A DNA stretch of 64,000 nt from Thermoanaerobaculia bacterium (GTDB taxonomy: Bacteria > Acidobacteriota > Thermoanaerobaculia > Multivoradales > JAGPDF01): assembly GCA_963699245.1 (NCBI GenBank), contig OY969426.1:216695-280694 (forward strand), written 5' to 3'. The position numbers and the translations under genes were made by a program. Shown in pieces: positions 34,830-52,338 of the stretch. The notes beneath the pieces were generated by a model. It saw only the letters and a program-made list of their open reading frames with translations, did no database searches and had not been told where the DNA came from. Numbering within the stretch: position 1 is the first letter of the stretch; each line of letters begins with the position of its first letter.

Positions 34830-36788
34830 ATGGCCCAACGGGGAGTCTTTCGTCGTCCGCGCCTGGTGGTGGCGGGTTCCTCTCTGCAGATCGGCCGGCA
34901 CGTCGCCGACGCGTTGCGGCAGGAGCATCGCGTCTTCGTGGTCACGCCGCGCTCGATCGAGGAGTGTGGCGCTCCGGGGGTCGAGCCCGGGGCCTGGTTG
35001 CAGGTCGATCTCGCCGATCGCGAACGGGTCCGGAACGCCTTCGAGGCGATCGGCGAGAGCGGCAACGTCGATCTGGTGATCTATGTCGGCGCCGATCCGT
35101 CGCCGGACGGAACCATCGCGGCGGCCGGCGGGGAGCTCGCGAACGTCATCGGCGCCTGCGCGGCGGTGACGCCGCAGCGCTTCCTGCTCGTCCGTCCCGA
35201 GGCGCCGGAAGGGGCCGCGGACCCGGCGCGCGCCGCTCTCGAGCGCGCCGAGGACGAAGCGCTGAAGGCCGGCCGCGGTACGCTCCCCGTGGCGAGCATC
35301 CGCTTCGCGCCGCGGCCGCGCCTGATCCTGACCGGGGCGTCGGGCTTCATCGGACGTCACCTGATCGATGCGCTGCGCGAGGACTTCGAGATCGTCGCGC
35401 TGGCGCGCAGCTCGCAGAGCTACTGCGGCGTGCCGCCGCACCCGAACGTCTCCTGGCTGCAGGTCGACCTCTGCGACCGGGCGGCGCTGGCGGGCGCCTT
35501 CCGCCGCATCCGCGAGGGGGGCGGCGCCGATTTCGTGGTCCATCTCGCCGCCTATTACGATTTCACCGGCGAGCCGCATCCCGACTACCAGCGCACCAAC
35601 GTCGACGCCCTGCGCGACGTGCTCGAGGAGTGCCGCGCGTTGCGACTGCGCCGCTTCGTCTTCGCGAGCTCGCTCGCCGCCTCCGATTTCCCTCCGGCGG
35701 GCGTGCGGCTCGACGAAGCGAGCGCGCCGGACGGCCCGCATCCCTACGCGATCACCAAGCGGCGCGGCGAAGCGCTGCTGCGCGAGTTCGCCGACGTGCC
35801 GTCGGCCATCGTGAGGCTGGCCGCGATCTACTCGGACTGGCTCGAGTATCCGCCGCTCTTCGTCTCGTTCGAGCGCTGGCGGTCGGCCTCCTGGGATCGC
35901 GGCATCCTCGGCGGGCGCGGCGAGTTCGCCATTCCCTACCTGCACGTCCAGGACGTCCGGGAGTTCCTGATCCGCCTGCTCGGCGCGAGCGACGAGCTCG
36001 AGCCCGCCGAGGTCCTGATCGCGAGTCCCGACGAGCCGACGTCGCTGCGGTTCCTCTTCGAACGGGTGGCGCGCTCGGACGAAGGCAAGCTGCCGCCGTC
36101 GCCGGCGCTGCCGGTGCCGGTCTGCCGCGTCGGCATGGTGGCGCGCGACCTGCTCGGCCGCGCGCTCGGCAGCCGCCCCTTCGAGCGCCCCTGGATGGCC
36201 GGCTACATCGATCGCACCATGCCGGTCGACGCCCGGCGGACGCGTTCGCGGCTGGGCTGGCAGCCGCGCGAACGGCTGCTGCTCGAGCGCCGCCTGCCGC
36301 TGCTGCTGCAGAACCGCCGGGCGACTCCGGCCGAATGGCAGCGGCGCAACCAGGTGGTGCTGCAGCGCAACCGCACCGCGCTTCACCTCGAGCTCCATGC
36401 CGCGCTGGAACGGATCGAGCCGGAGGCACTGCGGCGGGTCGCCCTGGCGCCACGGGCGGCCCAGCCACCCCCCGACGACTGGGGGAGCCGGGTCGCCTTC
36501 GAGCAACTGCGCGCCGCGGTCCGGAATCGCGACGCGTTCGAATTCGGAACCTTCTGCGGGCTGCTCGCCGAGCGCCGGTTCGACCAGGGGTGGCTGGCCG
36601 CGGAGGTCGACGCCGAGCTGCGGGCGCTCGAGGCGAGCTCGGTCGCCGCGGTGCGGGAGGAGGCGGAAACGGCGCCGTTGCGCGCGCAGCTGGAAGAGCT
36701 CCTCGGCCTGCAGTTCCAGATGGGGCGGGACCAGGTCGAAGAGCGCTACGAGCAGATCCGGCTCCATCCGCACCGGCGCGCCGGCTGA
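34830..36788 (+). CDS. NAD-dependent epimerase/dehydratase-family protein with degenerate N-terminal half-domain and ~200-aa helical C-terminal extension
   Basis: ATG at 34830. Canonical LILTGASGFIGRHLIDAL at residue ~180 with the YxxxK context PYAITKRRGE. The first ~170 aa have only a weak Rossmann-like pattern (LVVAGSSLQIGRHV). Intact, 652 aa. Confidence 0.65.
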   Translation: MAQRGVFRRPRLVVAGSSLQIGRHVADALRQEHRVFVVTPRSIEECGAPGVEPGAWLQVDLADRERVRNAFEAIGESGNVDLVIYVGADPSPDGTIAAAGGELANVIGACAAVTPQRFLLVRPEAPEGAADPARAALERAEDEALKAGRGTLPVASIRFAPRPRLILTGASGFIGRHLIDALREDFEIVALARSSQSYCGVPPHPNVSWLQVDLCDRAALAGAFRRIREGGGADFVVHLAAYYDFTGEPHPDYQRTNVDALRDVLEECRALRLRRFVFASSLAASDFPPAGVRLDEASAPDGPHPYAITKRRGEALLREFADVPSAIVRLAAIYSDWLEYPPLFVSFERWRSASWDRGILGGRGEFAIPYLHVQDVREFLIRLLGASDELEPAEVLIASPDEPTSLRFLFERVARSDEGKLPPSPALPVPVCRVGMVARDLLGRALGSRPFERPWMAGYIDRTMPVDARRTRSRLGWQPRERLLLERRLPLLLQNRRATPAEWQRRNQVVLQRNRTALHLELHAALERIEPEALRRVALAPRAAQPPPDDWGSRVAFEQLRAAVRNRDAFEFGTFCGLLAERRFDQGWLAAEVDAELRALEASSVAAVREEAETAPLRAQLEELLGLQFQMGRDQVEERYEQIRLHPHRRAG

Positions 36789-36797
36789 CGCCGGCCT

Positions 36798-38114
36798 TCA
36801 GCGCGCCACGATGGTGCGCAGCTTGCCACCCGGCGTGAGGGCGATGGAGTCGACGCGCTCGACCCGCGTCGGGCGAGGGGGAGCCACCAGGCGGTCGAAG
36901 ATCGTCGCGACCGTCTCGCGGTCGGCCGCCGCACGCGGCAGGTCGCGTTGGACGAGCAGGATCTGCAGGCTCCGGTCGGCCTCCTGGATTGCCTGAAAGT
37001 CGACCACGCTCGCCATCACCGGACGCATCGCCTCGACCGCCTGGCGCGGGCCGACGCTCGCACCGGCCGCCGTGCGGAGGACGTCGCGCGCGCGGCCCGC
37101 GACGGTGCCGAAGACCGGCAGCCCCCGCCCGCAGGAGCAGACCGTCGACTCTGGAGCGATCGCCCGGTCGCCGACCCGGTAGCGAAGGAAGGGCGTCGCC
37201 GGATTGTGCAGCGCGGTGAGCAGGACGTCGCCGGTCTCGCCGGGCGCGGCGGGGGAGCCGTCGGCGCGCACGATCTCGGCGAGGATCCCTTCGGCCGGGA
37301 CGTGCAGCGAGCCGCCCTCGACGCATTCGTGGGCGACCAGACCGGTCTCCATGGTCGCGTAGCGCTCGTAGACCGGGCAAGCAAAGGCCTCGCCGAGAGC
37401 TTTCCGGTAGTGCTCGTGCAAGTGGTTGCCGCCGCTCCAGCAGGCGCGCGCCGGCACGCGGCGCCCCTCTTCGATCAACGCGAGCGCCACCACATAGAGC
37501 GCGTTCGAGACTCCCCAGACGAGCGCCGGTGGATGGCGCTCGGCCGAACGAATGAGGCGCGCGACGACCCGGCGGTCCACGATCGTCGGCGCGTGCAGGG
37601 CGTCGGCATTGAGCAGGAGCGCCGAGAGCCGCTGGGCCGGCCCGACGGGACGGCAGCGCACTTCCAGCCGGCGCTCGCCGATGGCGGCACCGAGCCAGGC
37701 ATGGGCGCGCGCCTCGCAGGCGTCGCGCCAGCGCATCTCGGAGAGGGGCCAGAGAAAGTGCACCGGCCTGCCGAGCGAGCCGGAGCTGCGCGCCTTCATG
37801 CCCCAGCTCCCCGGAGCGCGAAGGCCGGCGAGGCCGAGACGTTCGACCTCCTCGCGCTCGAGGATCGGCAGCCGCCGCACGTCCTCGAGCGAGCGGAGAT
37901 CTTCCGGCGCGACCCCCGCCGTCGCGAAGCGCTCGCGGTAGAAGGGAATCCGCCGCGCGGCGGCGACGAGCTCCCGCAGGCGGCGCAACTGGAGCTCCTC
38001 GACCTTCTCGCGCGGCCACCATTGGCTCGCCTCGAGCAGCGCGAGCTCGGGGCCCGGGCGTGCGGGATGGGCGTACCAGAGGGGCCTGGCGATTCGTTCA
38101 CGCCAACCCGGCAT
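36798..38114 (-). CDS. PaaK/F390-synthetase-like adenylate-forming enzyme (CapK-like)
   Basis: ATG at 38114: ...QLRRLRELVAAARRIPFYRERFATAGVAPEDLRSLEDVRRLPILEREEV...ARSSGSLGRPVHF...YATMETG...LRYRVGDR. Intact, 438 aa. Confidence 0.7.
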   Translation of the reverse strand: MPGWRERIARPLWYAHPARPGPELALLEASQWWPREKVEELQLRRLRELVAAARRIPFYRERFATAGVAPEDLRSLEDVRRLPILEREEVERLGLAGLRAPGSWGMKARSSGSLGRPVHFLWPLSEMRWRDACEARAHAWLGAAIGERRLEVRCRPVGPAQRLSALLLNADALHAPTIVDRRVVARLIRSAERHPPALVWGVSNALYVVALALIEEGRRVPARACWSGGNHLHEHYRKALGEAFACPVYERYATMETGLVAHECVEGGSLHVPAEGILAEIVRADGSPAAPGETGDVLLTALHNPATPFLRYRVGDRAIAPESTVCSCGRGLPVFGTVAGRARDVLRTAAGASVGPRQAVEAMRPVMASVVDFQAIQEADRSLQILLVQRDLPRAAADRETVATIFDRLVAPPRPTRVERVDSIALTPGGKLRTIVAR

Positions 38115-39631
38115 CAGATCTCCCTCTCTCCGCGTTCGAGCAGCGCCGTCCCCGAGAGTCCTTCGAGGTCGGCGCCGAGCAGCGCGCAGGCGGTGGCGCC
38201 GAGATCGGTGAGCCGCGGCGGGCGGCCGGGATCGAGCGGCCGCGCGCGGGCGGGCAGCAGGAGCGCCCAGGCGTCGTCGACGTGGTTTCCCGAGCGCCCG
38301 CTGCCGACACCGTCGCGCGCGATGTTGCCGAAACGCGGCGAGCGGACGCGGTCGGCGCCCGCCGCCGGCCGGTCGTTCCAGAAGACGACGAGGTCGGGAA
38401 GCCCCGCCGAGTAGCTCTCGCCGCCCGCGATCTCCGACATCGGCAGGACGCGCTCGACGGTGCGCGTGCCGTCCGGTTCGAGAAAGGTGTTCAGTCCCTC
38501 GGCGATCTCCGCCGCCAGCGCCTGGACCGAGGCGGGATCGACGACGCCGTCGCGCTCGCGCCCACCGAGGTTGAACCGGATGTAACCCTTGTTCTCGCCC
38601 GGCACCGCGATCGCGCGTGGCGGCGGGCCGGCGCGCCGCAGGTAGAGGCGGGTCGTGAGGTCGGCGACGAGATCGTCGGGGAGGGCACGCGCCATCCGGG
38701 AGCGCCAGCGTGCGGGCACCGACGCCCGCAGCTTCCAGATCGGCGAGCGTGGCGCCGCGCTCGCCGGGCGCCGCCCGCCCGCCAGGACAGCGTCGAGCAT
38801 GGCGGGAAGGATGTCGGCGCGGCTGGTGTTCGCCGCCATGCCGGTGGGCGAGAAGACGACCAGGTCGGCGTCGGACGGCAAGGCGGCGACGATGCGGCCG
38901 ATCGCCGCGTCCACCGCGACGTAGACCTCCTCGATGGCGCGCCCCAGCGACTGCTCCGCCGCCGCGTCGAGCGGCTCGTCGATGACGCTGCTGGCGTCCC
39001 AGAACTGGTGCCCGGCCTTGTGCGCGGCGGGGAAGTTGACCCAGACGAAGTCGAAGCTCTCCCGCTCCAACAGGGCCAGGGTGGCGTCGGCGGCGCGCCC
39101 GGGGGCGGCCGCCAGGTGGCGTCGCCACTCGAGCAGCGTGGCGACGCTGCGCGTGCCGTAGACGTCGTCGAGGGGAGGCGGCGGACCGAACCGGCGCGCC
39201 AAGTCGCGGCGGACGGAGCGAGGAAGGGCGCGGTTCTGCAGCACCATCCGATCCTCGAAACCCCAGCCGCAGAGATAGACACCGGCCATTTCGCGCGGGG
39301 GCCAGGCGAGAAGCGGATCGACGATCAGCGAGCGCCGCCCGGCGCGGCCGAGGCGTTCCCAGATCGTCTCCGGCTTGTCGAAGGTCTGGGCGAAGCGGGC
39401 GCGCTGCTCGGCCGCCGACCAGAGGAAGGCCGAGTAGATACCGTGCCGGCGGACGTCGATGCCGGTGCAGAGCGTGGGGTAGGTCGCCGATTGCAGGATG
39501 GTGGCGCGCGCGTCGAGGCTCTGCCAGTCGCCGCGCTGGCGGAGGCCGGCGAGCGCCGGCAGACGGCCTGCGGCCAGCAATCGTTCGACGAGCGGAAGCG
39601 CGGGTGAGTCGAACTGCAGGAAGACCAGCAT
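38114..39631 (-). CDS. Alkaline-phosphatase-superfamily protein (type I phosphodiesterase / nucleotide pyrophosphatase-like)
   Basis: MLVFLQFDSPALPLVERLLAAGRLPALAGL...SATYPTLCTGIDVRRHGI (NPP-type metal-Asp and nucleophile-Thr region), VWVNFPAAHKAGHQFW, VVFSPTGM, SGNHVDD. The stop overlaps the next ATG by 1 nt (TGATG). Confidence 0.65.
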   Translation of the reverse strand: MLVFLQFDSPALPLVERLLAAGRLPALAGLRQRGDWQSLDARATILQSATYPTLCTGIDVRRHGIYSAFLWSAAEQRARFAQTFDKPETIWERLGRAGRRSLIVDPLLAWPPREMAGVYLCGWGFEDRMVLQNRALPRSVRRDLARRFGPPPPLDDVYGTRSVATLLEWRRHLAAAPGRAADATLALLERESFDFVWVNFPAAHKAGHQFWDASSVIDEPLDAAAEQSLGRAIEEVYVAVDAAIGRIVAALPSDADLVVFSPTGMAANTSRADILPAMLDAVLAGGRRPASAAPRSPIWKLRASVPARWRSRMARALPDDLVADLTTRLYLRRAGPPPRAIAVPGENKGYIRFNLGGRERDGVVDPASVQALAAEIAEGLNTFLEPDGTRTVERVLPMSEIAGGESYSAGLPDLVVFWNDRPAAGADRVRSPRFGNIARDGVGSGRSGNHVDDAWALLLPARARPLDPGRPPRLTDLGATACALLGADLEGLSGTALLERGEREI

Positions 39632-39636
39632 CGTCG

Positions 39637-41226
39637 TCACTCCGCCAGCGTCCGGAGGGCCGGGATCTTGCCGCCGGCGGTGGCGTGGGGAGCGTCGCGC
39701 AGGACGCGCAGCGTCTGTCCCTCTTTCCAGACGTCCGCCATCAACCGCTGTCCGGCGCCGCGGGCGCGCAGGAAGGCGAGGACGCTTTCGACGACACGTC
39801 GCTCGTCGAGCTCGCCGACCTCGGGGCGCACCAGGAGGCTGACGACCGGCAGGCCGTCCCGCTCCCGTTCGAGGAGCTGATAGTCGGTCGGGCGGCCGCC
39901 GAAAGTGGCCGGCAGATGATCCTCGACGAGGCCGAGCAGGTCGACGCCCAGCAGGTGCATCCCTTCGCTGGTCAGTTTCTCGTAGCTGCGGATGGTGTGC
40001 AGGCGGGTTCGGAAGCCCGCCGGCAGCGCACCGCAGCCGCAGTCGCTCGGTTCCCGCACGCCGGTGTCGCCGCTCTCGACGTTGATCATCAGCTTCGGCG
40101 AGGCCGGGTGCAGCGTCGTGTGGACGAGGGCCGGCAGCTCGACGCCGAGGGATCCGAAACGGCGCGGTCGCTCGATCGTCGCGACCTTGTCGTCGAGCAG
40201 GTGGACGGCGTCGGGCTGTCCCGCGGCGCAGCAGGCGAGGCCGATCAGGCCCGCTTCGGTCATGGCGTAGTGGCAGAAAGCCCGGCTGCTGGTGCGCGCG
40301 ACGACTTCCGCGCGCGCGGCGGTGTAGGGCTCGCCGACCAGGACGAAGAGCGTGTCGCGGATGTCGAGCCCCTCGTCGAGCGCGGCGGCGCAGACGCGCA
40401 CTCCACCGCTGACGGTCGTCGAGAGAAGCGCCGGCGTTTCCTGGTCGCGCTGCTGCGCGAGCCAGCGGGCGATGCGCGCGGCGGCGCGGGCAGGCGCGAA
40501 CTCGGGCGTTGGCAGGGGAGCCCCGGCGAGCCGGCTGGCGAGCAGCGCGGCGCGGGTGAAGAGCGCGTGACGCAGCTCGCTGTCCTGCAGCCGGTTCTGC
40601 GCGAACCAGCGCTCGGCCGGCTGTCCGAGGCGAGCCTGAATGAGGGCGCACTTGAGGCCGACCGCGCCGGGCGGCGCCAGGTGCCAGATGCCGACCGGGC
40701 GGCCAGTCGCTCCGGCGGCGGCGAGGAAGAGCGCGTGGTAGGCGCTCTCGTGCTCGAGCAGGTCGAGATCGACGAGCACCGCGCGCGCCGCGCCGGTCGA
40801 GCCGCCGGTCTGCGCGGCATAGTGCCGGCGGGTGAGCGGGTTGTCGAAGTCCCCGGCGTGCGTGTCGAGGTCGAGGCCAGGGCGCGCGATCGGGCTTCGT
40901 CCCTTGAACTCTTCGAGCGAGAGACGAACGCCGGCATCGTGGAGCTTCTCGAGCGTGGTCTCGAGGCCCTCCGTCGCGAGCAGGGACTCGATGTCTCCCG
41001 GCGTCACGCCGGCCCAGGCGAGCAACCGGCGATAGGGACTGCCGGGCCGCTCGTGGACGGCGAGGCGAAGGAGGTCCGCGAAGGCGGACTCGCGCTCGGC
41101 AAGGCGGCGCTCGAGCCGCGCGCGCGGATCGCCGGAAGCGGCGGGTCGGGCGAGAAAGGGGCCGAGTCCGCGCAGGAATTCCCCCGCTGAGCGTAGCTCG
41201 CGGGCGCGCGCGCGGACTCGCATCAT
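39637..41226 (-). CDS. PaaK-like / acyl-protein-synthetase-like adenylate-forming enzyme (second copy, divergent)
   Basis: ATG at 41226. AAQTGGSTGAARAVLVD (A3-like core), YAMTEAG, IRSYEKLTSEGMH. Intact, 529 aa. Only 5 nt separate it from the downstream ATG. Confidence 0.6.
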   Translation of the reverse strand: MMRVRARARELRSAGEFLRGLGPFLARPAASGDPRARLERRLAERESAFADLLRLAVHERPGSPYRRLLAWAGVTPGDIESLLATEGLETTLEKLHDAGVRLSLEEFKGRSPIARPGLDLDTHAGDFDNPLTRRHYAAQTGGSTGAARAVLVDLDLLEHESAYHALFLAAAGATGRPVGIWHLAPPGAVGLKCALIQARLGQPAERWFAQNRLQDSELRHALFTRAALLASRLAGAPLPTPEFAPARAAARIARWLAQQRDQETPALLSTTVSGGVRVCAAALDEGLDIRDTLFVLVGEPYTAARAEVVARTSSRAFCHYAMTEAGLIGLACCAAGQPDAVHLLDDKVATIERPRRFGSLGVELPALVHTTLHPASPKLMINVESGDTGVREPSDCGCGALPAGFRTRLHTIRSYEKLTSEGMHLLGVDLLGLVEDHLPATFGGRPTDYQLLERERDGLPVVSLLVRPEVGELDERRVVESVLAFLRARGAGQRLMADVWKEGQTLRVLRDAPHATAGGKIPALRTLAE

Positions 41227-41363
41227 GAGCGGAGCACTCCGTTCGACTCGGGATCTGGAGGAATCGCTCGCGATGATACTCTGCGCCGATCCGATTCCGT
41301 GCTGGTGAGAGCGGAAGTCCCGCGACTGGGCCGCCGGGCCTCGTCCCGGCGGGAGGAGAAGGG

Positions 41364-42167
41364 ATGACCTCCGCGCTGTCCGCAAGTTCCCGCTACTGGG
41401 ACGAGACGATCCATCGAGTCCGGGACGCCGCTCCGAGCGGCGCCTGGTACCCGTATATGCGGCGGGTGTACGGAGCGCTCGTCGGCGACTGGCTGGCGCC
41501 GGACAGGGGTCCGATGCTCAAGACCGACCTGTTCGAGGAGGCCGTGAGCGCGCATCATCCGCTGCTCGACCTCGGCGAGCAGGCCATGGGCATCGACCTT
41601 TCGCTGCGCACCGCTCGCTTCGCGCGGCGGCGAGCGCCGTCCGCGGCGAGATCGCGTCTCCTGGTCGCCGATCTGCGCGCGCTCCCGCTCGCCTCGAACT
41701 CGCTGCCCGGAATCCTCTCCGGCTCGTCGCTCGATCACTTCAGCGAGCGCCCGCACCTGGTCGAGGGCCTGCGCGAGCTGGCCCGCGTGCTCGCTCCCGG
41801 CGGCACTCTCCTGCTGACGCTCGACAATCCCCACAATCCGGTCGTCTGGCTTCGCAATCGGCTCCCATTCGGCCTGCTCGAGAGGCTCGGCTTCGTGCCC
41901 TATTTCGTCGGCGTCACGCTCACGAGGGCGGAGGCGGAACGCGAGCTGGCCGCCGCGGGCCTGCGCGTCGTCGAGCGCCGCGCGGTGGCCCACGCGCCGC
42001 GTGTACCGGCGATCTGGGCGGCGAAGGCCGTGGCCTGGCTGGGATTGGGGGAGGAGCCGCTGGTCGCGTTCCTCGTCGCCTTCGAGCGGCTCGCCGGCTG
42101 GCCGACCCGCTTCCTGACCGGCTACTACCTCGCCTTTCGCGCGATCAAGGACGAGGCTCCGGAGTGA
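41364..42167 (+). CDS. Class I SAM-dependent methyltransferase
   Basis: GGAGGAG RBS. LLDLGEQAMGIDLS (motif I-like), ADLRALPLASNSLPGIL, LAPGGTLLLTLDN. Divergent from the ligase operon (137-bp spacer). Confidence 0.65.
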   Translation: MTSALSASSRYWDETIHRVRDAAPSGAWYPYMRRVYGALVGDWLAPDRGPMLKTDLFEEAVSAHHPLLDLGEQAMGIDLSLRTARFARRRAPSAARSRLLVADLRALPLASNSLPGILSGSSLDHFSERPHLVEGLRELARVLAPGGTLLLTLDNPHNPVVWLRNRLPFGLLERLGFVPYFVGVTLTRAEAERELAAAGLRVVERRAVAHAPRVPAIWAAKAVAWLGLGEEPLVAFLVAFERLAGWPTRFLTGYYLAFRAIKDEAPE

Positions 42168-50511: not shown

Positions 50512-52338
50512 TCATTCCCATTCGATCGTTCCCGGCGGTTTCGTCGTCAGGTCGAGCGCCAGGCCGCCGACGCCGGGCAACGCGAGGAGCGAGGCGCGCA
50601 GCTCGGCGAGCAGCGAGGCGGGGAAGGGGGCCGGCGTCGCGGTCATGCCGCGCTCGGAGCGGATCGGCCGCACGATCGCCAGCTCTTCGCCGCGGCCGTC
50701 GATCGTCATCGGCACCAGCACGGTCGGGCACTGCCAGATCGAGTCGTAGAGGCCGTGACGCCGCAGGCCGTCCATCACGATCGCGTCGGCCTCGCGCAGC
50801 AGGTCGAGCCGTTCGCGGGTGGTCGCGGCGGCGCGCGGCCGGAAGCTCGCCGGCTCGCCGCTCTCCGGGTCGCCCTGCCACCAGAGGGCGCGATTGACGT
50901 GCGGCACTTCGCGGTAGATGGCGCCGGCGGCGAGGAGGAGCTCCTCCCACGGCTTCTCCGAGAAGAGCATCACCGGATGCTCGTAGGAGCGCAGGTCGGC
51001 CTTGACGCCGACCGAGCGGATCGGCAGCGCGCGCGCCGCGACGCCGAGGCGCGCCGCGACGGCTGCCAGGGCCGGCTCGATCTCGTCGAAGTGGTCGCGG
51101 TCCTCGGCGCCGGTCGAGCCGAGCAGGCGGACGCCGAGTCCGGGGCCGGGAAAGGGATGGCGCTGTACGACTTCGGCCGGCACGCCGAGGCGGTCGCCGA
51201 GCTCGCGCACTTCGACCTTGTAGAGATCGGCCAGCGGCTCCACCACGCGGCCGGCGGCGATCATCTCCTGGATGATCGGCACGCGATTGTGGTGCGTCTT
51301 GATGGTGTCGGCGCGTTTGGTGCCGCCGGTCTCGATGGTGTCGGGATAGATCGTCCCCTGCGCGAGCAGGTGCGACTCGATGCCGAGCCGGCGCGCCTCG
51401 CGCTCGAAGACCTCGACGAAGGTGTCGCCGATGATCCGCCGCTTGCGCTCCGGCTCGACGACGCCGGCGAGCGGGCGGAGAAAGGCATCACTCGCGTCGA
51501 CGAAGGCGAGGTTGGCGCCCAGGCCGAGCTCCTCGAGCGTCGAGAGCACCTGCCGGCTCTCGTCGCGGCGCATCAGCCCGTTGTCGATGTGGAGCAGGTG
51601 GACCCGCTCCGGCCCGAGCGCCAGCGCCAGCAGCTTCGCCGCCACCGTCGAGTCGACCCCCCCCGAGGCGAGCAGGAAGACCGAGCGATCGCCGACGTGG
51701 GTCCGCAGGCGATCGATCTCCTCGTCGATCCAGCGCTCCATCGTCCAGGTCGGGCGGCAGCCGCAGATGCCGAAGACGAAGTTGCCGATCATCTCGGCGC
51801 CGTGCAGCGTGTCGTCGACCTCGGGGTGGAACTGGAAGCCGTAGCGGCGCAGCTTGTCGGAGCCGATGGCGGCGTAGCGGTGCGGCGGAGCGCCGGAGGT
51901 GAGGCGCGTGAAGCCCAGCTCGCGAAACTCCGGGCCGACCGCGACGACCGAGTCGAAGTGGCTCATCCAGACCGGCTCGACCGGCCCGAGGCCGCTGAAG
52001 AGCGCGTGGTCGCCGGTGAGGTGGAGATCGGCGGGACCCCACTCGCGGCCGCCGTGGATCACCTCGCCGCCGTAGCGCTTGGCGATCTCCTGGTGGCCGA
52101 AGCAGAAGCCGAGGATCGGCGTCTCGAGGTCGTAGATCTCCTTCGTGTAGTCGGAGTCCTCGCCGAAGGCCGAGAGCGACGGGCTGCCCGAGAGGATGAT
52201 GCCGTCGAACTCGGCGAATCGCTCGATCGGGTCCTCGGGCTGGAGGATCTCGGCCAGCACCGCGAGCCGGCGGACCTTGGTGGCGATGAGGTGGGCGTAC
52301 TGCCCGCCGAAATCGACGACGGCGATCTTGTCGTGCAT
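50512..52338 (-). CDS. guaA: GMP synthase (glutamine-hydrolysing), long 608-aa form
   Basis: GFCFGHQ (GATase Cys), FLLASGGVDSTV (PP-loop), HPFPGPGLGVRLLG, C-terminal KPPGTIEWE. ~90-aa insertion before the dimerisation domain. Confidence 0.9.
   Translation of the reverse strand: MHDKIAVVDFGGQYAHLIATKVRRLAVLAEILQPEDPIERFAEFDGIILSGSPSLSAFGEDSDYTKEIYDLETPILGFCFGHQEIAKRYGGEVIHGGREWGPADLHLTGDHALFSGLGPVEPVWMSHFDSVVAVGPEFRELGFTRLTSGAPPHRYAAIGSDKLRRYGFQFHPEVDDTLHGAEMIGNFVFGICGCRPTWTMERWIDEEIDRLRTHVGDRSVFLLASGGVDSTVAAKLLALALGPERVHLLHIDNGLMRRDESRQVLSTLEELGLGANLAFVDASDAFLRPLAGVVEPERKRRIIGDTFVEVFEREARRLGIESHLLAQGTIYPDTIETGGTKRADTIKTHHNRVPIIQEMIAAGRVVEPLADLYKVEVRELGDRLGVPAEVVQRHPFPGPGLGVRLLGSTGAEDRDHFDEIEPALAAVAARLGVAARALPIRSVGVKADLRSYEHPVMLFSEKPWEELLLAAGAIYREVPHVNRALWWQGDPESGEPASFRPRAAATTRERLDLLREADAIVMDGLRRHGLYDSIWQCPTVLVPMTIDGRGEELAIVRPIRSERGMTATPAPFPASLLAELRASLLALPGVGGLALDLTTKPPGTIEWE

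Follow-up and report, generated by a model that had tools for sequence, protein, structure and literature searches.

A conserved, apparently mobile gene cassette in which two PaaK-fold ligases flank an alkaline-phosphatase-fold protein with an altered active site: a possible envelope-glycan tailoring module

Enzymes of the ANL/PaaK type convert a carboxylate and ATP to an acyl-adenylate and then transfer the acyl group onto a thiol, an amine or a hydroxyl. The subject of this study is a trio of adjacent minus-strand genes, here termed A, B and C, that lies in a 64-kb window of DNA (the whole stretch analyzed) from a Thermoanaerobaculia bacterium. The outer genes, A and C, encode ligases of this type, the middle gene encodes a protein of the alkaline-phosphatase (AlkP) superfamily, and a class I S-adenosylmethionine (SAM) methyltransferase gene (MT) diverges from A. 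All positions are those of the window unless a different locus (L number) or the genome that carries the window (G000) is named. By analogy, the closest functional precedent for a PaaK/CapK-like protein working beyond coenzyme A (CoA) ligase chemistry in a glycan pathway is VpsH. In the VPS pathway of Vibrio cholerae, genetic evidence shows that the amidation of L-GulNAcA with glycine, on a bactoprenyl-linked disaccharide, depends on this CapK/PaaK-like protein; its action precedes Wzx-type export, the polymer can be assembled without it, and its biochemistry is still unproven (PMC13463779). A ligase followed by a phosphatase is described for the HS:2 capsule of Campylobacter jejuni, in which Cj1438C performs ATP-dependent amidation of polymer-bound glucuronate before the action of Cj1435, a HAD-superfamily phosphatase that is encoded alongside (PMC11800397). 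Tailoring of a glycan or a metabolite by CapK/PaaK-like ligases is already known, and no described system was found for the trio itself. Searches of Pfam, NCBIfam, PADLOC and the literature returned no characterized capsule or exopolysaccharide pathway that matches it, literature searches on PaaK-like proteins with polysaccharide and on COG3379 gave nothing relevant, and a literature search on uronic-acid amides turned up no PaaK-type enzyme.

Genes A (39637-41226, 529 aa), B (38114-39631, 505 aa) and C (36798-38114, 438 aa) are arranged head to tail on the minus strand. The stop codon of A is separated from the start codon of B by a 5-nt gap (39632-39636, minus strand), with a GGAG inside the end of A (sequence read from one codon to the other, gcGGAGTGAcgacgATG; junction also written GGAGTGAcgacgATG), and the stop codon of B and the start codon of C have one base in common at position 38114 within the sequence TGATG (GGGAGatcTGATG). 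Gene A starts with an ATG at 41226, with a GGAG upstream. Beyond it lies a divergent intergenic region of 137 bp (41227-41363), which is presumed to hold the promoters, and then MT on the plus strand (41364-42167, 267 aa; PF08241, E 1.7e-11). Scans of 36-43 kb for a sigma-70-like consensus, terminators and Rfam elements were negative. The genome that carries the window is a single 3.8-Mb contig (C1) with a completeness score of 66%, and the GC content of the window is ∼73%. Many spurious open reading frames overlap the trio region, and a coding-type codon bias was observed in only the three minus-strand frames. Given that GC at third codon positions (0.88-0.91) greatly exceeds that at second codon positions (0.53-0.55) in A, B and C, these frames are typical of coding sequence in a genome of 73% GC. 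None of them contains a frameshift or an internal stop, and full-length orthologues at 53-68% identity exist elsewhere for all three; A, B and C are thus real genes, and chance reading frames can be excluded. Elsewhere in the window, gene models may carry assembly indels. An earlier note on this DNA, made from the sequence alone, had described three intact minus-strand genes with a 5-nt gap, a 1-nt TGATG overlap and a methyltransferase diverging across a 137-bp spacer. Its coordinates and junctions were confirmed, and the motifs that it quoted are present, namely TGGSTGAAR and YAMTEAG in A, SSGSLGRP and YATMETG in C, and FLQFDS and SATYPTLCTG..HGI in B.

The proposal that the three genes form a unit was borne out by synteny across genomes and phyla. 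The order A-B-C was the same in all 13 other loci (L013/L025, L014/L015, L018-L024, L026-L028 and L116) in which B or A is at least 53% identical to the window protein. Across these loci, the A-B junction spans −4 to +5 nt and the B-C junction −4 to +40 nt, the exception being three loci that are interrupted by a sulfotransferase gene; a 5-nt gap or an overlap of 1-4 nt between A and B was observed in L013, L014, L020, L023, L024, L027 and L116. In the three interrupted loci, all from Gemmatimonadota, a Sulfotransfer_3 gene lies antisense between A and B on the minus strand (L018 8924-9925, L019 8963-9913 and L022 8936-9928), and the cassette thus tolerates broken A-B coupling. The pairwise identities of A, B and C, compared over ten loci, correlate with r = 0.84-0.91. 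Tight coupling and fixed order would fit a stoichiometric A-B-C complex.

The carriers of the trio are metagenome-assembled genomes (MAGs) of Gemmatimonadaceae/Gemmatimonadales and members of a Burkholderiales/Casimicrobiaceae group. Close homologues of B and A (P0024, P0181) were also found on a short contig labeled Thermoanaerobaculia, and metagenomes contain many B homologues at 55-63% identity, with ∼80 B clusters at ≥55% identity for trio-positive MAGs. Among 40 genomes that belong to the genus, family or order of the window, no close B orthologue was found; the best matches there were 27-32% identical and canonical, NPP-like proteins. The A family was present in 15 of the 301 sampled genomes of the window's phylum, with a best identity of 43%. 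In the B tree, the window copy lies within the trio clade among Gemmatimonadota sequences, separately from the proteobacterial ones. Given that the trio is conserved elsewhere and absent from the 40 close relatives, it behaves as a horizontally moved unit and, to judge from these sequence comparisons, as a rare cassette that moves between phyla.

Assignment of both outer proteins to the PaaK-type adenylate-forming enzymes agrees with the earlier note, and was obtained for C by sequence and for A only by fold and motifs. C is assigned unambiguously from its sequence to the PaaK family of adenylate-forming enzymes. Its phmmer matches in the PDB include 4r1l (BT_0428, 2.7e-19), AjiA1 (6wuq), NatL2 (6siw) and PaaK1/2 (2y27 and 2y4o), and the motifs SSGSxG, YATMETG, RYRVGD, CxCGRG and TPGGKLRT (with GGK432) are invariant in 11 orthologues. 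Matches of C to the NCBIfam models for DVU1553, PaaK, FlxY, BagE and F390 were all far under the respective cut-offs. Scores against the PaaK equivalogs TIGR02155 and NF041878 were 62.6 bits (cut-off 646.3) and 86.4 bits (cut-off 700), those against the F390 synthetase model TIGR03335 and the F390-related model TIGR02304 were 46.1 (cut-off 458.7) and 21.4 (cut-off 251.9), and that against BagE/FevW was 49.6 bits (cut-off 800). For A, no usable Pfam, NCBIfam (TIGR02155 and NF041878 included) or PDB sequence match was obtained, and the protein was therefore placed by fold search only. Here, an AlphaFold2 (AF2) model built from 30 homologues (predicted local distance difference test score, pLDDT, 86.2) gave PaaK1/PaaK2 and BT_0428 as the best Foldseek matches (E 1e-16 to 1e-18, TM-score ≤0.69), with ClxA also among the fold matches. 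By this model, A is a second, very divergent PaaK-fold ligase that carries an extra N-terminal helical region, predicted to comprise ∼100 aa. In an alignment of 30 homologues of the A family, T140-G-G-S143, Y320..E324, D387 (ESGD), C396/C398 and K520 (GGK) are invariant or nearly so.

A and C have in common the two-domain PaaK fold, the P-loop, the YxxxE motif, the GD hinge and the C-terminal catalytic Lys of ANL enzymes. Given that every curated equivalog fails, neither protein is a phenylacetate-CoA ligase or an F390 synthetase. In an hhalign profile alignment, A and C are ∼24% identical with colinear adenylation motifs, which excludes a recent duplication and agrees with the view that the two are too divergent for one. 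The A family is large, with at least 1,100 clusters of 50% identity at E ≤ 1e-30, and its members are nearly everywhere annotated as “hypothetical protein” or left unnamed, with one mislabel.

Protein B passes the threshold for PF01663 (E 7e-14, 52.6 bits, gathering cut-off 23). Its AF2 model (pLDDT 86.5) was matched by Foldseek to PhnA (1ei6, a phosphonoacetate hydrolase, the best fold match), ENPP1 and the Xac NPP, with TM-scores of 0.45-0.6, 12-15% identity and a probability of 1.0. The AlkP core fold and the Pfam result uphold the earlier placing of the middle gene in the NPP/alkaline-phosphatase superfamily. To assess the active site, B and its homologues were aligned with canonical relatives that other members of the window's genus, family and order encode, and HMMER alignments of B with ENPP7 and PhnA gave the same register. 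A profile search of the PDB with the B alignment returned marginal matches only (E 1.3-1.9), which served residue mapping. The canonical relatives carry the complete set of catalytic residues, consisting of the Asp, the Ser/Thr nucleophile and the D..H, SDHG and GxH motifs. At the nucleophile position, nine residues before a conserved TG, B has Gln47, as does the trio clade, and an Ala is present in the sister, actinobacterial clade; the helix at this site is predicted by the model to begin at residue 47. The adjacent Ser48 is conserved in the trio clade. At the SDHG site, B reads S261-P262-T263-G264; the Pro is invariant, with Thr, Ile, Val or Ser after it. An invariant His204 takes the place of the Asp of the first metal site, and there is no conservation at the position of the phosphoryl-binding Asn. 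D8, H208 and H450 are retained, so that the sequence leaves a residual three-His (plus Asp) site possible.

Given that the nucleophile and two metal ligands are missing, B is not a canonical phosphodiesterase, and the loss is specific to the B family, since these residues are all present in canonical relatives from within the same order. More than 15 arginines of B are invariant, and a large Arg-rich insertion occupies residues 289-335. Membrane association through an amphipathic helix in this insertion was considered and dropped, since the hydrophobic moment was not above the protein average. No signal peptide or transmembrane segment was found in A, B, C or MT.

Two more distant relatives of B were encountered. 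L002, in a genome of the same order as the window (G039), encodes an AlkP-fold form that aligns with B over its full length at 27% identity and keeps a Thr nucleophile, the SDHG site reading ASHG and the D..H site H..GH; this form may represent a step in the decay of the canonical site. Approximately 16 kb before the window start, a B paralogue at 30% identity (G000:C1:199095-200543; L113 7057-8853) lies in a 598-aa open frame that adjoins an amidohydrolase gene, and no Pfam match was obtained for it at E ≤ 0.001.

Several genes travel with the trio. MT orthologues are adjacent, either upstream of A or downstream of C, in each of the nine assessable non-proteobacterial loci (L013, L019, L020, L021, L022, L023, L024, L026 and L116), and a full-length alignment with 57 invariant columns shows MT to be one orthologous family. 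It is absent from the proteobacterial loci L014, L027 and L028; MT is the fourth member of the module outside Proteobacteria. A Sulfotransfer_3 gene adjoins the trio in six loci and, in L013 and L020, an orthologous sulfotransferase gene follows C on the same strand. A Wzx-like protein of the 12-transmembrane type (∼445 aa) is encoded upstream of MT in L013, L020, L023 and L026, and the equivalent position in L116 is occupied by a gene for a 393-aa protein that has no Pfam match.

The wider families of B and A were also surveyed. A sister clade of B, at 41-51% identity, occurs in Actinomycetota, Nitrospirota and one “delta proteobacterium”. It never adjoins A and C, and only in L080 was a weak, 33% C-like match observed, ∼3.5 kb away on the opposite strand. 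Its members belong to a cassette with the order GT2 / GFO-IDH-MocA oxidoreductase / B / GT2 / the same Wzx-like protein, sometimes followed by an Emb-like or PMT_2 GT-C enzyme. Among 46 such loci of at least 15 kb, the oxidoreductase was present in 44, GT2 in 39-41 and the Wzx-like protein in 31. Examples are L016/L017 8136-16859 and ∼40 further actinobacterial loci (L029-L097), some with an Emb-like arabinosyltransferase gene after the cassette. The actinobacterial cassette looks like an uncharacterized cell-envelope glycan pathway that has the nucleophile-less AlkP-fold protein as a core member. In a Nitrospira MAG (L077 4613-18063), tandem B paralogues of 517 and 505 aa are flanked by genes for GT4s, three GFO-IDH-MocA oxidoreductases, a PMT_2 GT-C enzyme and a cytochrome P450.

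Members of the A family at 45-50% identity were examined in five further loci (L098, L099, L100, L114 and L115). That in L098 adjoins genes for a PMT_2 enzyme, three GT4s, an acyl carrier protein, an AMP-binding enzyme and an LpxL-like acyltransferase, and that in L099 adjoins a Polysacc_synt flippase gene. In the genome that carries the window, a 34% A paralogue (G000:C1:2298497-2306000; L111 8498-17625) is divergent from a Polysacc_synt (Wzx) flippase gene, beyond which are genes for a Cys/Met pyridoxal phosphate enzyme, a PMT_2 GT-C enzyme and a sulfatase. A third A paralogue in the same genome (G000:C1:2496896-2498278) is 38% identical and contains one in-frame TGA.

The recurrent sulfotransferase and Wzx-like genes, together with the GT2 contexts of the B family and the flippase contexts of the A family, support a glycan-type target. 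The weight of this context points to envelope glycoconjugates, though non-exclusively. Of the decoration proposed in the earlier note, a glycan-type target is plausible, but the phospho-linked form is unsupported. We favor, at about an even chance of its being correct, an explanation in which MT-A-B-C is a self-contained, horizontally transferred cytoplasmic tailoring module for an envelope glycan or a lipid-linked precursor, with VpsH/CapK-like ligases and B as a non-canonical accessory. In this scheme, A and C would each activate a different carboxylate with ATP to give an acyl-adenylate, and would pass the acyl group to an amine or a hydroxyl, forming an amide or an ester on the glycan or lipid-linked precursor in the cytoplasm. 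The carboxylates would most likely be borne by the glycan; small acids destined for attachment would be less likely. The Arg-rich cleft and residual metal site of B may bind an anionic part of the substrate (phosphorylated, sulfated or nucleotide-like), and B may serve as a shared platform for the two ligases or as the catalyst of a non-canonical metal-dependent step. MT and, in many genomes, the sulfotransferase would add further groups, and the Wzx-like (MOP-type) membrane protein would export the product. The lack of signal peptides in A, B, C and MT, all soluble, fits cytoplasmic action before export. The sequence analysis itself establishes the integrity of the genes, the folds and motifs of the proteins, the missing catalytic residues of B, the synteny and the patchy distribution; the glycan substrate, the formation of an amide or ester and any role for B are inferred.

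A number of observations weigh against this tailoring scheme. Genes for glycosyltransferases, sugar-nucleotide enzymes or a polymerase were not found beside the trio in most loci. The sulfotransferase was not found in G000, in which the nearest homologue of the Wzx-like protein is 2 Mb distant, so that the window contains neither partner gene, and the match of the Wzx-like protein to Polysacc_synt (PF01943) is weak, with an E value of 0.005 that falls under the Pfam cut-off. In Burkholderiales, the trio stands alone next to a two-component system and a MacAB-type exporter. The contexts of the A family in L100, L114 and L115 (the last with a long methyltransferase) are not glycan-like, and the role given to B is pure inference. 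In addition, the PaaK-like ligases NatL2, AjiA1, BagE and ClxA make small-molecule esters or amides.

Several of the same observations would be accounted for if the genes were a small-molecule natural-product cassette, in which A and C condense small carboxylic acids to an ester or amide, B acts as a metal-dependent cyclase or hydrolase, MT caps the product, and export is of the MOP or MacB type. This is the best-placed of the alternatives, although it is somewhat unlikely. Among solved structures and curated families, those nearest to C include NatL2, AjiA1, BagE/FevW and FlxY, and ClxA is among the fold matches of A. The patchy, cross-phylum and self-contained distribution of the cassette and the MacAB-type exporter beside the Burkholderiales trio are consistent with it. 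In L114 (7090-11318), a 47% A-family ligase is encoded between radical SAM/SPASM and thiamine pyrophosphate-dependent enzymes near a MacB-type ABC exporter, a small-molecule-like context which indicates that the A family is not restricted to glycans. However, genes for precursor supply (such as those for aminohydroxybenzoate, chorismate or polyketide units), carrier proteins or thioesterases were found in no trio locus, and all of the NCBIfam natural-product models scored far under their cut-offs. The recurrent partners of the trio are instead the sulfotransferase and the Wzx-like protein, and the B family is otherwise found in glycan cassettes with GT2, GT-C and oxidoreductase genes.

The earlier note had considered B a phosphodiester-handling enzyme between two adenylation steps. 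Here, A and C would adenylate carboxylates around a working phosphodiesterase or phosphotransferase, such that a phosphodiester-linked acyl or aminoacyl decoration is built or trimmed. Two variants can be considered with it. In one, AMP would be transferred as by an F390 synthetase and cleavage would follow; in the other, resembling the Cj1438/Cj1435 pair, an amidation with an amino-alcohol phosphate would precede dephosphorylation. The model and its variants, taken together, are unlikely. The PF01663 match and the NPP/PhnA fold are in their favor, as are the retention of Asp8, His208 and His450, the presence of His204 where NPPs have Asp, and the conserved Ser48 next to the nucleophile position. 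Ligase-then-phosphatase logic exists in the C. jejuni capsule, and C has weak similarity to the F390 synthetase models. By contrast, Gln occupies the nucleophile position in the trio clade and Ala does so in the sister clade, the Asp-His pair that serves the second metal and nucleophile activation is Pro followed by Thr, Val or Ile, and the site of the phosphoryl-binding Asn shows no conservation, whereas same-order canonical relatives keep every one of these residues. The earlier note had itself named a middle protein without metal and nucleophile residues as an outcome that would count against its proposal. This is what was found for the nucleophile and two of the ligands, with D8, H208 and H450 retained. 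The role of B in phosphodiester handling is therefore doubtful, and a phospho-linked decoration is left unsupported.

A more speculative form of the tailoring scheme assigns catalysis to B. In this form, B might be a re-purposed AlkP-fold enzyme rather than a dead scaffold. The acyl-adenylates produced by A and C, which resemble nucleotide phosphodiester substrates, would bind at its three-His metal site and NPP-type nucleotide pocket, from where their acyl groups would be guided to an acceptor. A-B-C would then constitute a new CoA- and carrier-independent machine for double acylation or amidation of envelope polymers. Taken as a whole, this proposal is improbable. The strictly conserved order and coupling, the co-evolution of A, B and C, the invariance of three His, one Asp and many Arg residues, and the lack of any other acceptor-binding component are compatible with it.

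The remaining alternatives concern the surroundings of the trio and catabolism. The stop codon of C is 9 nt from the end of a convergent double-Rossmann SDR gene (662 aa, ending at 36788), which confirms the second flank as the earlier note had given it. Further along the window, GuaA (50512-52338) is 608 aa long with an extra segment, a feature not peculiar to this genome: metagenome bins of Thermoanaerobaculia and other Acidobacteriota commonly encode homologues of 605-609 aa with 73-81% identity, and the closest (78%) belong to these groups. The earlier note had linked the trio to the neighboring GT-C protein and RRE cassette, and a peptide or small-protein modification locus does lie at 43.5-49.8 kb (PqqD-TPR, HprK-like kinase, S24-PF14907 and GT-C-like proteins), 2.2-4.5 kb from the trio; the trio could in principle acylate or decorate the substrate of that locus. 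We give this very little credence. The trio is transcribed away from that cassette with three genes between, and tblastn searches of 12 other trio loci (≤10 kb of flank) found no homologue of the PqqD-TPR, HprK-like, S24-PF14907, GT-C-like, secreted-paralogue or SDR genes. Similarly, no PqqD-TPR, HprK-like, PF14907, GT-C-like or SDR domain is listed in the gene table of L116. Given that these neighbors do not co-occur with the trio, the latter is independent of the 43.5-49.8-kb cassette, and the proposed link was rejected on synteny.

A catabolic module for an organic acid or phosphonate, with two aryl- or alkyl-acid CoA ligases and a phosphonoacetate-hydrolase-like enzyme, would agree with PaaK proper being a catabolic CoA ligase and with PhnA being the best fold match of B, but it is very improbable and was rejected, as genes for ring oxidation, β-oxidation, transporters or phosphonate metabolism are not nearby, the catalytic Thr and metal ligands common to PhnA and the NPPs are missing from B, and the 62.6-bit score of C is far from the 646-bit PaaK equivalog cut-off. 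A reading as anti-phage defense was dropped, since A, B and C matched no PADLOC model at E ≤ 0.1.

The trio is thus real and conserved, its carriers are all uncultured, and its most likely role is an ordinary one; the finding is no breakthrough as it stands. The analysis nevertheless defines two sizeable families that have no functional annotation, A with a PaaK fold and no Pfam model, and B with an AlkP fold. In the B family, the nucleophile and one half of the metal site are consistently missing; even so, the family is highly conserved, occurs in glycan loci of at least five phyla and would illustrate re-use of the AlkP fold after covalent catalysis was lost. Were envelope glycans indeed amidated or esterified by the ligases, soil Gemmatimonadota, Acidobacteriota and Burkholderiales would have in the cassette a portable means of re-charging or masking their surface polymers, and the very recent VpsH precedent would be extended.

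Comparison with known systems sets the trio apart from each of them in a different way. Like VpsH, the ligases have a PaaK/CapK-like adenylate-forming fold and a proposed cytoplasmic tailoring role rather than that of a CoA ligase. VpsH works as a single enzyme encoded in a full locus of glycosyltransferase genes, whereas the trio has two mutually divergent ligases around an AlkP-fold protein, usually with no glycosyltransferases alongside. The C. jejuni pair resembles the trio in the logic of a ligase with a phospho-group-handling partner, but the folds are unrelated, the C-terminal amidoligase domain of Cj1438 being of the ATP-grasp type, and the likeness is one of analogy only. PaaK1/PaaK2 (2y27 and 2y4o) and BT_0428 (4r1l), the best sequence matches of C and fold matches of A, have the adenylation motifs and two-domain architecture in common with both ligases; unlike them, A is undetectable by sequence and has the extra ∼100-aa N-terminal region, and paa catabolic genes are not nearby. 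NatL2, AjiA1, BagE and ClxA, which are PaaK-like enzymes of benzoxazole-type pathways, transfer an adenylated acyl group straight to a hydroxyl or amine without CoA and work with a second, metal-dependent enzyme. That enzyme is a cyclase of the amidohydrolase fold, as opposed to the AlkP-fold B, and the aminohydroxybenzoate supply genes are absent at the trio. Finally, B has the core fold, the first-strand Asp and two metal-site His residues in common with the Xac NPP (2gsn), ENPP1 and PhnA (1ei6), and differs from them in the change of the Thr/Ser nucleophile to Gln, of the second-site Asp-His to Pro-Thr and of the first-site Asp to His, in the Arg-rich insertion at residues 289-335 and in its predicted cytoplasmic location.

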